NCBI RefSeq assembly: GCF_988243305.1 | Contig: NZ_OZ547136.1 | Length of the DNA stretch: 64,000 bases | Strand: one strand, 5' to 3' | Position numbers: made by a program | Part shown: positions 27,001 through 42,000 of the stretch, piece after piece | Layout: the number at the start of each line of letters is the position of its first letter | How positions within the stretch are numbered: position 1 is the first letter of the stretch

Positions 27001-30000
27001 GGCAAGTCCGGCCCATATCGCATTATACCCCATCGTTTCCTGGAGTAACTGCGGCATAAGGACTATCGCCCCAGAGTAAAATAAATATGCGCATGTGATA
27101 CTCACAATACCAATGGTGAAATTACGGGACTTAAACAAACTGAGATCAAGAATCGGATTCTCTGAGGTCGACTCCCAAATGACTAAAGAAATCAGAGAAA
27201 TAACTGACACTACTGTTAGTATTATTATTGTACTCGAGTTGAACCAATCCAGATCGCGCCCTTTATCAAGCATTATCTGCAAGCCACCAACACCGAGCAC
27301 TAACAGGGTCAGTCCTGGTAGATTCATTTTGACCGGTGAAATCTCAGTTTCTCTTCCTTTAAGTAAGGTTAAGCATAATGTCAGGACGATAATCCCCATT
27401 GGGACATTGATTAAAAATATCCAACCCCAGCTAAAGTTATCGCAAATGTAGCCACCCAATATCGGCCCACATATCGGAGCGATAATTACGGTCATTGACC
27501 ATAATGCCAGAGCAAATGTTCTTTTTTCTGGCGGATAATTCCTTAATAATAAACTCTGTGACAGTGGAATTAACGGCCCCGCCATTAACCCCTGAACGAC
27601 TCTAAAAAATATCAGCACATCAAGATTGGTCGATAGGCTACACATTAATGAAGATAGCGAAAAAAAGGTTACTGAAAGTAAAAATAATCTTAATTCGCCT
27701 ATTCTTTGTGCCAACCTGCCGGTAACAGGGATCGCAATGGCATTTGCTACACCAAACGAAGTGATAACCCAGGTGCCTTCGTCTGTTGATGCTCCCAGAA
27801 AGCCAGATATTGTCGGTATTGCGACGTTAGAAATAGTGGAATCCAACATTTGCATAAACGTCGCTAAGGACAATGCAATAGTGACGCACCATAACGTCCC
27901 ACCGGTTAATGGTGCCGGAGTTGATTTAGTGATTGCCATTAAAGTTGTCCATTATGCGAAATAATGTTGCTAATTTCTTTTTCTATCGGACTGGTATCGA
28001 TAACTAAAGCCTTACTGGTATAAGCAGGCATGGACGTCACGGTTGAAGCCAGATCGGGCATATCGGCAATGTCTTCGTTCCTGGTATCAATAGTTGCAGT
28101 CATCGATAAACCAATACGCAAGGGATGTTCCATGAGTTCTTTTGGATCAAGAGAAACCTCAACCGGTACACGCTGAACGATTTTGATCCAATTCCCTGTC
28201 GCATTTTGTGCAGGTAATAAGGAGAACGCATTGCCGGTTCCCATATTGATCCCTGTCACCCGACCATGAAACACAACATTTTCACCATAAAGATCGCTGA
28301 TAATATTGACCGATTGACCAATCCGTACATCCGTGAGTTGTGTTTCTTTAAAGTTAGCATTAACCCACATTTGACGTGCCGGTACGACAGCCATTAACGA
28401 TTGTCCGGGACTCACTGTTTCGCCGACCTGAACACTTCGCTGGGCAATATAGCCGGTAACCGGACTCTTAATATCCGTACGTTTAAGCGCCAACCAGGCT
28501 TCTTTGGTTGCATCCGCAGCTTCAACGACTTGTGGCTGACGGTTTAATGGTGTGTTCATTACTAAAGCTTTATTCGCTTTATAAGCCTGAATAGCAGCAT
28601 TCAATGCCGCTTTGCTACTTATTAACGTATCTTTGGTATGCTCCAGCGTTTCTTTTGAAATAATCCCCTGCTTCGCTAAAGGTACACGACGGTTATAATC
28701 TTCTAAAGATTGTTGATACTGAATACGTGCTGAAGCGACTTCGGCACTGTATTGTTTATCCTGTAAGTACAGTTTATTCGTTTGCCGAACAATATTGGCC
28801 AGATTATTTTTAGCTTTATTGAGTGCGATAGTGGCATCAGTCTTATCCAGTGAGACTAAAATGTCACCCTGTCGAACGTAGTTCGTATCTTTATGATTAA
28901 CGACAGTGACGCTGCCTGAAACTTGTGCAGAAATTGGATCTGCATTCCCCGTGACATAGGCATCATCTGTACTAATCATGTCTTCTAATTCCATTGACCA
29001 ATAGGCATAGGCACCTGAAAACGCAATAAATAAAACTACCGCCAATAAAGAAAAGTATTTTCTTCTGTTAGAATGTTTTTTATTTGAATTAATCTGTTCC
29101 ACTATTATCTCTCATTTCGCATAGATGAAATTTATGAATTGAATGAAAAGAGTATTCATTCTTCATATCAAACACAGTGCATGTGTTGCACATTGTCCCA
29201 GGAACGTTGGAGGCCTAATTTAAATGAGGTGCAAAAAAAACAACAGAGGACTAAACCGTGGCTTTTGCAATACAATTCTTACGCATGTAGGATTAGTGAG
29301 AAGACTTATAGTGCTAATGTGAAACTATAAATCATCGGTACAATCCCTGATTTTATTGTTGACATTTCATTTATGCCGACTATTTATATGGTATACTTGT
29401 CGAATTATCTTAAAGGAAGCTCAAATTTTCTTATTTTTATTGAGAAAATGAGATGATGCCTTATGTCTGTATTACTACAGGGAGAAGGGAGATGCTTCAT
29501 TGCAAAGGGAATAATCTATGAACGCAATAATTATTGATGACCATCCTCTTGCTATCGCAGCAATTCGTAATTTATTGATCAAAAACGATATTGAAATCTT
29601 AGCAGAGTTGACTGAAGGCGGAAGCGCCGTTCAGCGGGTGGAAACACTTAAGCCTGATATCGTCATCATTGATGTCGATATCCCCGGAGTTAACGGTATC
29701 CAGGTGTTAGAAACGCTAAGGAAGCGTCAATATAGCGGAATTATTATTATCGTCTCCGCTAAAAATGACCATTTTTACGGGAAACATTGTGCTGATGCTG
29801 GCGCTAATGGATTCGTGAGTAAAAAAGAAGGCATGAACAATATCATTGCGGCTATTGAAGCTGCAAAAAATGGCTACTGCTATTTCCCCTTCTCTCTCAA
29901 CCGGTTTGTTGGAAGTTTAACGTCCGACCAGCAAAAACTCGACTCCTTATCGAAACAAGAAATTAGTGTCATGCGGTATATTCTTGATGGCAAGGATAAT

Positions 30001-39000: not shown

Positions 39001-42000
39001 GAAGTGGAGTTGACATAGCAATACCTATTAGTTAATTAAATATATGTTAATTTAGCGTTTATTTAAGGCATAACGCCCTCTATAAATAATCCGCAAAATA
39101 TCGTCGTAGCTGCACTCGATATTTTTAAATTCCTGTATCAAGTGCTGAAAATCATTTCATCGCCACTTCCAATTCCTTTCTGCATGGTAAGTAGTGAGGA
39201 CGAAAAGAAGAATATGATAAATATTGGTTCGCGGTAATCAGAGAGAGCCGCGACATTTGTGATGTTATTCTTACAACTGTAAGAAGCGCCGGTGATTTAC
39301 AAGTAAGGGTATGATTACGCCTTTTAAAGCGTACCATAAAACATAACATAATAAATGATTTGTGATGACACGGGATTATTGCGGTTTACTTTGAGGAAGA
39401 TAAAATGCGAGTTTATAGAACCGCGAGCGCCAAATAATTTTATGACCACAACCTGTCGTATTGTGGTCATAAAAAATTGTCGGCTGGAGGGAGTTAAATC
39501 CTTTACCTCAATATACTGCCTGTCAGCGTTAGTTCACAAACAGTGCTTCGCTATCGACGATGATTCCATCTTCCGCACCTTTAAGCGCCAGGTTTGCCTC
39601 GTAGTATTGCTTTTTATCAAGCAGTTTCTGCGCATCAGCAAGTGCATTACGAGTCTGTTTGAGCGGCATCAGATATTGGTTTTCCATTACGCCAACACCG
39701 GCCAGGCGCAGCTCTTCCATTGCGCCCTTTTTATCCCCTTTCGCCATTTTTTCGTTGGCAATTTTTATCGCGGCTTCTTTTTCGGGTGTCGCTACATAAC
39801 TCTCAGAAATTCCGACAGATGCATTAATGACAATATATTGGTCATCATTGACATTGGTCTTTTTACCTGGCTTAGCGAACTTTGCCCATTCGGTACTGTC
39901 ATCTGACAACAAAGCTGAAGCTTCATTGGTCAGTTCTTTTGCCTTTTCCGGATCGCCATGAAACAGAGCCAAGCGCGCTACCTGCACGTCACGCATCGCA
40001 TATAAACCTTGTTCAGAGATACGCTCTGCTGCTGCCGTTTTCTGGGTTTGCTGAACTTGCTGAGTTTGCTGTTGTGCCGCTACCGGTGCATTATCAGCCG
40101 CCCATACAGTTGAAGATGCCAGAATTGCTGTGACCATCGTAGCCATAATTAAACGTTTCATACTTACCTCATTCTTTAACAGTTTTAGAAAACGCCGCCA
40201 TCATATTGGGTGAGCATGAAATGAGAAATCAGAGAGCAACGGTCATTTTGAAAGGGTTATCTTACAGTTGTAGTTATTATCGCAAGAAGTATTTTAGTCT
40301 TACAATTGTAGGAATATGCTTCCTGTCACAGAGAACTATTCTTATATACCAAAAAGAGATGTCATTTATTATATCGATGTAAATACTGATTAATTATATG
40401 TAAATACAGCAATAACGTCGTAGGTTTTCAGTGAACCATTTTCAGGATAACTTTCTATGAAAGTAAACTTAATGCTTTTTAGCTTATTTTTATTGGTCTC
40501 TATTATGGCATGCAATGTTTTTGCATTTTCTATTTCTGGTGGTGGTAGTGAGGCGAGCTATAAAGAGACGGAAAAAACGTCAGCGATGACGACAACTCAC
40601 TCTACAAAATTTCAGCCATCACAGGCGATTTTGTTAAAAATGAGAGAAGATGCGCCACCATTAAACCTCACAGAAGAAATTCCGCCCCCTTTTCCGACAA
40701 AGGCGAATTATCTTATCCATCCTGTGCGATAGCGTCTGTCACACGGCAGGTGAACAATCATGTCTGATGCTGATGTGAACACCTGCCCAAATGAGCCATC
40801 CTGACCCACTACCGCCTGCCATATCCCACCATAAAGCGAATCATCAAGCCACAAGCCGGGGCAAGAAACATAAATATCCCCGTCACCAGTTCATTACCGC
40901 CAGTTAACCACATGGTGAAGTAATAAATGAGTGCAGCGAGGATCACCATGCCGAAGAAAGAAGAGACCGCCGATACCACGTTCAGTACCTGACCGATGTA
41001 TCCGCTTACGCAGACAATACACAGGGCGAGAAACATCCATAAATAAATCATAGCTCAACCTCCTGCCGCGCTAAAAAACCTGTAACTTCAGTCACTTTAA
41101 TAGTAAGACAATCCTTAACCTCTGGCAATTTTTGCTAAGCATCAATGAAAACAGCATGTTAAATGCAAGACTGTTGCGTACGGAAAAATATTTACTTTGC
41201 ACGATTAATAATCAGTAGCTGAAAGCAGTCAGCGAGTGATAAAGTACAGATACCGCATTCATGCTCCTCGTGGTTATGTCCTGACTAGTCTTTACACTCT
41301 TTACAGGAACCATTGTCGTACATGATGGCCTAATCAATTGAGTGTACCGCTGTCGACATGGAATCTTCTGCGATACAACAATTCGTATCTACAGAAGGTA
41401 ACTATGTTTCCAAAATGCAAATTTTCCCGCGAGTTTCTGCATCCTCGCTACTGGCTCACGTGGTTTGGGCTTGGTGTACTCTGGCTTTGGGTACAGCTTC
41501 CTTATCCTGTTCTCTGCTTTCTCGGCACGCGTATTGGCGCAATGGCGCGACCATTCCTGAAACGGCGTGAATCTATCGCCCGTAAAAACCTGGAACTTTG
41601 TTTCCCACAGCATTCTGCGGAAGAACGCGAGAAGATGATTGCCGAAAACTTTCGTTCACTCGGCATGGCGCTGGTAGAAACCGGCATGGCGTGGTTCTGG
41701 CCCGACAGTCGCGTACGTAAATGGTTTGATGTTGAAGGGTTGGATAACCTTAAACGCGCACAAATGCAAAATCGCGGCGTAATGGTTGTCGGCGTCCATT
41801 TTATGTCGCTGGAACTGGGCGGCCGCGTGATGGGACTGTGCCAACCAATGATGGCTACCTATCGTCCACATAATAATCAGCTGATGGAATGGGTGCAGAC
41901 CCGTGGGCGCATGCGCTCTAACAAAGCGATGATCGGCAGAAATAATCTGCGCGGCATTGTCGGTGCACTGAAGAAAGGTGAAGCGGTATGGTTTGCTCCC

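Follow-up and report, generated by a model that had tools for sequence, protein, structure and literature searches.

Inverted repeats upstream of emrK/evgA, frc and yfdX as probable EvgA boxes in Escherichia coli

The inverted repeats upstream of emrK/evgA, frc and yfdX are very probably operator sites (EvgA boxes) of the NarL/FixJ-type response regulator EvgA, serving emrKY/evgAS, yfdX and, independently, frc. They lie in a 64 kb stretch of DNA (the window), which is E. coli chromosome around emrYK, evgAS, yfdE-yfdV-oxc-frc and yfdX; EvgA and EvgS are both encoded here, with scores far above the NCBIfam equivalog cut-offs (Table 1). Sequence, statistics, conservation and the co-occurrence of evgAS are results of the present analysis; EvgA binding and EvgA-dependent induction are taken from the literature. 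An earlier note on this DNA had described three repeats that share an inverted-repeat core, together with a weaker fourth copy, and all four sequences are present in the window. The coordinates it gave for the frc copy and the strong yfdX copy were exact; those of the other two are corrected here from 29276-29294 to 29276-29293 and from 40258-40275 to 40259-40276. The frc copy, described as a perfect palindrome, is one in both of its 8-bp arms, but its central AC dinucleotide is without self-complementarity; its distance from frc, put at about 250 bp, was measured as a gap of 251 bp between box and ATG (39016, minus strand).

Table 1. Coordinates of the EvgA boxes, their probable target genes and associated features in the window.
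Feature	Position	Strand	Description
emrK-emrY efflux operon	26401..29102	-	Probably served by the 29276 box, on its minus-strand side
emrK/evgA EvgA box	29276..29293		TTCTTACGCATGTAGGAT, 2 mismatches to TTCYTACANNTGTARGAA; divergent intergenic region
evgA	29518..30132	+	Response regulator; NCBIfam equivalog NF007419, 437.9 bits vs. cut-off 251; identical-strain RefSeq annotation
evgS	30137..33730	+	Acid-sensing hybrid histidine kinase; NCBIfam equivalog NF007420, 2885 bits; identical-strain RefSeq annotation
frc-oxc-yfdV-yfdE	33786..39016	-	Probable target of the 39268 box
Inferred frc core-promoter stretch	39227..39267	-	Directly downstream of the box; holds C9 A10, T26 C27, T31
frc EvgA box	39268..39285		TTCTTACAACTGTAAGAA, 0 mismatches; two perfect 8-bp arms
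Terminator-like hairpin	39438..39474	-	Lies upstream of the frc box, about 55 nt past the stop codon of yfdX
yfdX	39529..40161	-	Probably controlled by the boxes at 40259 and 40297
Weak promoter-proximal yfdX EvgA-box-like repeat	40259..40276		ATCTTACAGTTGTAGTTA, 3 mismatches; ATG 97 bp away
Strong distal yfdX EvgA box	40297..40314		GTCTTACAATTGTAGGAA, 1 mismatch; yfdX ATG 135 bp away

The repeats were compared with TTCYTACA-NN-TGTARGAA, which we take to be the EvgA-box consensus; it was validated empirically on the sites of safA, ydeP and yegR. In E. coli K-12 the same motif occurs upstream of safA (one mismatch), ydeP (two mismatches) and yegR (one mismatch). This recurrence, the encoding of EvgA and EvgS in the window, and the combination of conserved half-sites with a variable spacer bear out the proposal that the repeats are EvgA boxes. 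In the K-12 boxes and the window boxes alike, the better half-site, GTARGAA, is oriented towards the regulated gene; in the emrK/evgA box it is GTAAGAA on the minus strand, pointing to emrK. The two sets also share a downstream register (C9 A10, T26 C27, T31): when seven EvgA promoters were compared in fixed register, positions +9, +10, +26, +27 and +31 downstream of the box were invariant, and the four least related promoters showed five invariant positions vs. 1.1 in a slid-register control, with five reached in 22 of 5,000 trials. Because the spacing between the box and these downstream bases is fixed in all seven promoters, we infer a promoter just downstream of the box; the exact start sites, and a box position of about -45 to -50, are estimated from the sequence, and frc transcription is predicted to start near 39227-39230. 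A simple sigma-70 scan downstream of the frc and emrK boxes yielded no convincing promoter, as would be expected for activator-dependent promoters. None of the -35/-10 candidates, at +5..+10 with +29..+34 and at +26..+31, matches the consensus well. A "TTTATA-18-AATAAT frc" promoter given in a genomic SELEX study (PMC3946193) falls near 39400-39372, on the upstream side of the box; it was set aside as a best-hexamer guess and not an EvgA-dependent promoter.

Conservation was examined across five lineages, three of them divergent E. coli and two represented by Yersinia-type copies of the block. The half-sites TTCTTAC and GTAAGAA of the frc box are invariant in these five lineages (14/14 half-site columns) and none of the four central columns is; in the emrK/evgA box, 13/18 columns are invariant, the variable ones being three central columns and two at the evgA-facing end. 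Conserved halves around a free centre point to a dimer site. Of 5,407 E. coli records, 4,203 carry an identical 36-mer around the frc box. In a class of 1,036 records with about three changes in this 36-mer, all changes in the two records sampled fall outside the box; the most divergent variant class of E. coli retains the box unaltered. The strong yfdX box is kept in all E. coli lineages examined; it is missing from the Yersinia-type loci, where homology stops downstream of it, and where the frc box is the sole strong box of the yfd cluster. Yersinia-type loci with evgAS also carry EvgA boxes. A contig scan based on Frc listed mostly distant Burkholderiales and actinobacterial frc loci; of the matches listed, one divergent E. 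coli, Moellerella and Providencia were informative, and the others were used as a negative control. Among these matches, Moellerella and Providencia have frc-oxc-yfdV without evgAS, yfdX or an upstream box. By way of exception, a Klebsiella-type locus with an EvgS-like kinase shows only a diverged palindrome. As a separate observation, the whole emrYK-evgAS-yfd block transfers between genera as one unit, boxes included.

The proposed EvgA input to frc apart from the yfdX promoter is supported by the organization of the yfdX-frc spacer. The frc box with about 45 bp downstream of it forms the best-conserved 60-column block in the alignment of this 512-bp spacer, in the register of other EvgA promoters. 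Upstream of the box lies the terminator-like hairpin, with a 15-pair stem, the tail TTATTTGG and a folding energy of -25.4 kcal/mol (z = -6.1); its stem is invariant and its loop variable, with one A-U to G-U change. The conserved hairpin and the best-conserved box block fit a separate EvgA-dependent frc promoter. An Rfam search of the long frc leader and the rest of 28900-40700 returned no known RNA element. Such an organization is hard to reconcile with a single operon, in which the frc box would bind EvgA without a promoter of its own, frc would be transcribed only on a yfdXWUVE transcript, and the box would modulate read-through or be vestigial. A yfdXWUVE operon is mentioned in PMC3720670, and some papers still use it; moreover, the acid induction of yfdX and frc is similar, and a Klebsiella-type locus (L091) with the same gene order has a yfdX-frc spacer of just 123 bp and lacks the box. 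Separate frc input is therefore not universal. For all that, the single-operon alternative is very unlikely: besides the strong, conserved hairpin between yfdX and the frc box and the conservation and register of the box block, no other strong box accompanies it in the yfd cluster of Yersinia-type loci, and frc is given as having an EvgA-bound promoter of its own in the literature.

Separate EvgA input to frc agrees with these published accounts. According to PMC3720670, citing Masuda and Church (2003), inverted repeats bound by EvgA induce yfdX and yfdWUVE; that yfdX and yfdW(frc)UVE have separate EvgA sites is attributed by secondary sources to Masuda and Church (2003) and Itou et al. (2009), and PMC8147483 treats yfdX and frc as separate EvgA-bound promoters. 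Induction of frc-oxc-yfdV-yfdE is reported in PMC4283999 and PMC10746267, and emrKY is likewise given as EvgA-regulated in the literature. A literature search for EvgA ChIP or SELEX data found nothing relevant. Since the conclusion of a frc input distinct from that of yfdX is already stated in print (PMC3720670 and PMC8147483), the EvgA-box idea is correct but not new: EvgA sites for emrKY/evgAS, yfdX and separately frc are already known, and the published EvgA-box set includes the window sites as its emrK/evgA, yfdX and frc members.

The motif statistics set these sites apart from the remainder of the window. At up to three mismatches, the consensus matches only these four places in 64 kb, where 0.68 matches would be expected; four matches were reached in one of 100 shuffles, and our own calculation puts the expected number of perfect matches at about 6e-5 per window. 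All matches are restricted to three spacers, those of emrK/evgA, frc and yfdX. A position-weight-matrix (PWM) scan, which the earlier note had suggested as a check, was trained on three EvgA-regulon promoters outside the locus (safA, ydeP and yegR); the four boxes came out as the four best positions in the window, with the highest score for the frc copy. The frc score was reached in one of 400 simulated windows, that of the emrK/evgA copy in 6 of 400, and that of the strong yfdX copy in 70 of 400. The top four positions all lie within about 1.2 kb of spacer sequence adjoining EvgA-regulated genes, and 79 unrelated frc loci among the matches listed (about 1.5 Mb) contain no match at up to two mismatches. 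A candidate box with two mismatches also lies inside mdtE. Neither a chance origin of the palindromes in AT-rich intergenic sequence nor their use by another NarL/FixJ-type regulator such as RcsB is credible in view of the clustering of the top four, the rarity of a perfect match, the half-site-specific conservation, the motif shared with safA, ydeP and yegR, the motif-free unrelated frc loci and the published EvgA binding, even though the weak fourth copy does no better than chance in its score, a sequence resembling an RcsAB box with two mismatches shares bases with the distal half of the strong box at yfdX, and yfdX is under RcsB regulation in Klebsiella according to PMC6394985. The full RcsAB-box consensus was rejected as a description of the EvgA boxes, which do not match it; the only overlap is the one with two mismatches, at 40309-40322.

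With the repeats read as EvgA boxes, a mechanism can be outlined. Mild acid activates the EvgS kinase, and this activation would be the first step; a phosphorylated EvgA dimer would then occupy the inverted half-sites TTCYTAC/GTARGAA, and bound EvgA would activate a weak promoter that starts a few bases downstream of the box. The 29276 box would serve emrKY and the divergent evgAS, the proximal weak box and the distal strong box would together serve yfdX, and the 39268 box would act independently on frc-oxc-yfdV-yfdE, with a predicted leader of about 210 nt, from a promoter downstream of the hairpin that would end the yfdX transcript.

The weak yfdX copy requires separate consideration. It is present, as the earlier note had indicated, and its PWM score of 10.6, which was reached in 180 of 400 simulated windows, is at chance level, so that sequence by itself does not make it significant; position and conservation are what support it. 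Yersinia-type loci have kept this copy, and it stands in the same register to the downstream bases as the boxes of frc, emrK, safA, ydeP and yegR. A tentative reading, possible though somewhat short of probable, is that this proximal repeat is the ancestral, register-conserved activating site, with rigid spacing between box and core promoter at all EvgA-activated promoters, and that the strong distal box is an Escherichia-specific addition that would feed the proximal site cooperatively, in a BvgA-like manner.

Taken as a whole, the result bears out the textbook picture of how acid resistance is wired in E. coli and opens no new question: EvgS/EvgA very probably turns on directly the genes for the EmrKY efflux pump, for periplasmic YfdX and for oxalate decarboxylation, with frc under its own promoter. 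Its main value is that of a positive control, a real transcription-factor motif being recognisable from raw sequence. The fixed box-to-promoter register, the possibility that the weak site of yfdX came first in evolution, and the block-wise transfer together with the boxes are modest additions.

Comparison with known systems places the EvgA box among the sites of related regulators. NarL and RcsB belong to the same response-regulator family as EvgA, with a GerE/LuxR-type helix-turn-helix dimer bound to half-sites, and the 7-2-7 heptamer pairs of NarL and the RcsB/RcsAB boxes resemble the EvgA box in pairing two short inverted half-sites across a small spacer of fixed length. The EvgA half-site TAAGAA is similar to the left half of the RcsAB box TAAGAATATTCCTA, but the half-sites of the EvgA boxes are opposite in polarity to those of the RcsAB box. 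The closest well-studied homologue of EvgAS is BvgAS of Bordetella, where a phosphorylated dimer of the NarL/FixJ family binds inverted heptads of the TTTCCTA type upstream of the core promoter; secondary sites of lower affinity lie closer to the promoter, and primary sites are sometimes found at a much greater upstream distance, from which binding spreads cooperatively toward -35. BvgA differs in organism and regulon, and by analogy the strong and weak boxes of yfdX may work as BvgA sites do. The nearest parallels are the EvgA boxes of ydeP, safA(b1500)-ydeO and yegR in K-12 (Masuda and Church 2003; Itou et al. 2009), which are the same 18-bp inverted repeat as the window boxes; the ydeP box lies 243 bp from its ATG, much as the frc box does at about 250 bp. 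There is no essential difference between these sites and those of the window, and the frc copy is the nearest to consensus of all examined.

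The window is E. coli chromosome. A 1.5-kb stretch around the boxes is 100% identical in several RefSeq strains, and of 5,426 complete E. coli genomes 5,416 carry it. Genes are ordered dsdA, emrY-emrK (-), evgA-evgS (+), yfdE-yfdV-oxc-frc (-), yfdX (-) and ypdI (+). All four inverted repeats described in the earlier note are present, displaced by one or two bases at most; they were compared with TTCYTACA-NN-TGTARGAA, which we take to be the EvgA box. The frc copy had been called a perfect palindrome about 250 bp upstream of its gene; the distance holds and its two 8-bp arms are fully complementary, but the central AC is non-palindromic.

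Features of the emrYK-evgAS-yfd region (window positions; mismatches are to the EvgA-box consensus unless stated)
Feature	Position	Strand	Sequence	Description
emrK/evgA box	29276-29293		TTCTTACGCATGTAGGAT	2 mismatches; emrK/evgA spacer
Inverted repeat	29467-29480		CTGTA..TACAG	just 5' of evgL; kept in E. coli and Yersinia-type loci
Leader ORF (evgL in K-12 annotation)	29492-29521	+	ATGCTTCATTGCAAAGGGAATAATCTATGA	9 codons; overlaps evgA start codon
evgA	29518-30132	+		NCBIfam equivalog EvgA, far over cut-off
evgS	30137-33730	+		NCBIfam equivalog EvgS, far over cut-off
Implied frc leader	39017-39227	-		untranslated
frc box	39268-39285		TTCTTACAACTGTAAGAA	0 mismatches; frc ATG 251 bp away
yfdX-frc hairpin	39438-39474	-		15 pairs, then TTATTTGG; ~55 nt past yfdX stop codon, upstream of frc box
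Weak yfdX box	40259-40276		ATCTTACAGTTGTAGTTA	3 mismatches; yfdX ATG 97 bp away
Strong yfdX box	40297-40314		GTCTTACAATTGTAGGAA	1 mismatch; yfdX ATG 135 bp away
RcsAB-box-like sequence	40309-40322	-	GAAGCATATTCCTA	2 mismatches to TAAGAATATTCCTA; overlaps distal half of strong yfdX box

The consensus was tested independently on K-12 genes of the EvgA regulon elsewhere on the chromosome, and the pattern was found upstream of safA (1 mismatch, ATG 111 bp away), ydeP (2 mismatches, 243 bp; K-12 region L003, 8488-8730) and yegR (1 mismatch, 106 bp). A weight matrix trained on these three sites only, the kind of scan that the earlier note had proposed, placed the four boxes at ranks 1-4 of ~64,000 window positions; the scores of the frc, emrK/evgA, strong yfdX and weak yfdX boxes (22.3, 18.5, 13.4 and 10.6) were reached in 1, 6, 70 and 180 of 400 windows simulated with a first-order Markov model. 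The first two scores are rarely met by chance, the strong yfdX score stands out less, and on its sequence the weak yfdX copy is unremarkable. At <=3 mismatches the window holds four consensus matches vs 0.68 expected, all confined to ~1.2 kb of spacer beside EvgA-regulated genes, and among the matches listed, 79 unrelated frc loci (~1.5 Mb) contain no box at <=2 mismatches. Elsewhere in K-12, the region upstream of gadE has no box at <=3 mismatches; TTCTTACGCATGAAAGAA, an EvgA-box-like sequence with two mismatches, lies 3' of gadE inside the mdtE coding region (K-12 region L005, 5887-5904; NC_000913.3 ~3,659,886-3,659,903), and by our own calculation ~0.006 such matches are expected by chance in this 7-kb mdtE/gadE stretch.

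Seven promoters (frc, the weak yfdX copy and emrK; K-12 safA, ydeP and yegR; and yfdX of a Klebsiella-type metagenome contig, L091) were aligned without gaps, anchored at the gene-proximal box edge. All seven share CA at +9 and +10, TC at +26 and +27 and T at +31; the four least-related promoters share five invariant positions vs 1.1 in a slid-register control, in which at least five occurred in 22 of 5,000 trials. The better half-site, GTAAGAA or GTAGGAA, is always gene-proximal. This shared register of downstream bases, together with the half-site orientation, points to a rigid spacing between box and core promoter, with the box centre ~45-50 bp upstream of the predicted start site. Candidate -35 and -10 hexamers are all poor matches, none assignable with confidence, as expected where a promoter depends on an activator. 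For frc the predicted start would lie near 39227-39230, giving a leader of ~210 nt; since the box lies ~250 bp from the ATG in both frc and ydeP, each of these genes would have an untranslated leader of ~200 nt. The frc leader is conserved in parts and matches no Rfam family.

The weak yfdX copy falls into this register, and the strong copy and the evgA-facing side of the emrK/evgA box fall outside it. The weak copy and the adjoining TTGCGATAAT are kept in Yersinia alsatica-type loci, where homology to E. coli stops immediately upstream, so that the strong copy is absent. In the Klebsiella-type locus, a diverged palindrome, TTCCGACAATTGTCATCC (L091 9881-9898), occupies the weak-copy position 5' of yfdX in the same register. 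On these grounds the weak copy is probably real, and may be older than the strong one. The half-site of the Klebsiella-type palindrome reads CGAC where the consensus has YTAC, and regulator specificity may have diverged there; this locus also carries an IS element between yfdE and an evgS-like gene. As to the RcsAB-box-like sequence at the strong copy, RcsB has been reported as a yfdX regulator in Klebsiella (PMC6394985).

Among the matches listed, an Frc-based genome scan returned a divergent E. coli lineage (EvgS 91% identical), Moellerella and Providencia; the latter two have frc-oxc-yfdV without evgAS and yfdX, and no box. YfdX homologues led to the Yersinia alsatica-type loci and one further locus, all with the whole emrYK-evgAS-yfdE-yfdV-oxc-frc-yfdX block. 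Outside Escherichia, the whole block with the frc and emrK/evgA boxes was found in L086, L087 and L092 (Yersinia alsatica-type) and L088, L089 and L093 (Logan assemblies); in one context its neighbours are an integrase, a resolvase and IS1, in another hyp hydrogenase-maturation genes. The block looks to have been transferred as a unit. In the yfdX-frc spacer alignment, the frc box halves TTCTTAC and GTAAGAA do not vary in any of five lineages, while the central four bases are AGTT, AGCT, ACGC or GCGT; the emrK/evgA box likewise has conserved halves and a free centre. The frc box is separated from the start codon of its gene by 259 bp in Yersinia-type loci and by 251 bp in E. coli. The surrounding 36-mer is identical in 4,203 of 5,407 E. 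coli records, and in two representatives of a class of 1,036 records with ~3 changes, all changes fall in the flank and none in the box.

The hairpin between yfdX and frc (-25.4 kcal/mol, z = -6.1) has an invariant stem and a variable loop across the five lineages, with one A-U to G-U change, and is probably the yfdX terminator. The most conserved 60-column block of the 566-column spacer alignment runs from 8 columns before the frc box to ~35 bp beyond it, and this box is the only strong one in the Yersinia-type yfd clusters. Together these observations fit a yfdX transcript able to end ahead of a separate, EvgA-dependent frc promoter, and they support the earlier proposal that frc has its own EvgA input. 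The Klebsiella-type locus is a counter-example, with a yfdX-frc gap of only 123 bp and no box in it.

The four-repeat observation is confirmed and the EvgA-box reading supported. In 2003, Masuda and Church reportedly described an 18-bp inverted repeat upstream of seven operons, in six regions altogether, with gel shifts for each of the six; this number fits one region common to emrKY and evgAS and one each for yfdX and yfdWUVE (frc-oxc-yfdV-yfdE). EvgA is described as binding inverted repeats through which yfdX and yfdWUVE are induced (PMC3720670). In constitutive evgS mutants, frc and oxc belong to the genes with the strongest induction, and EvgA sites were found only at already-known targets (PMC4283999); acid co-induces yfdX, frc, oxc and yfdV (PMC10746267). 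The EvgA boxes of this locus, that of frc included, are already known.
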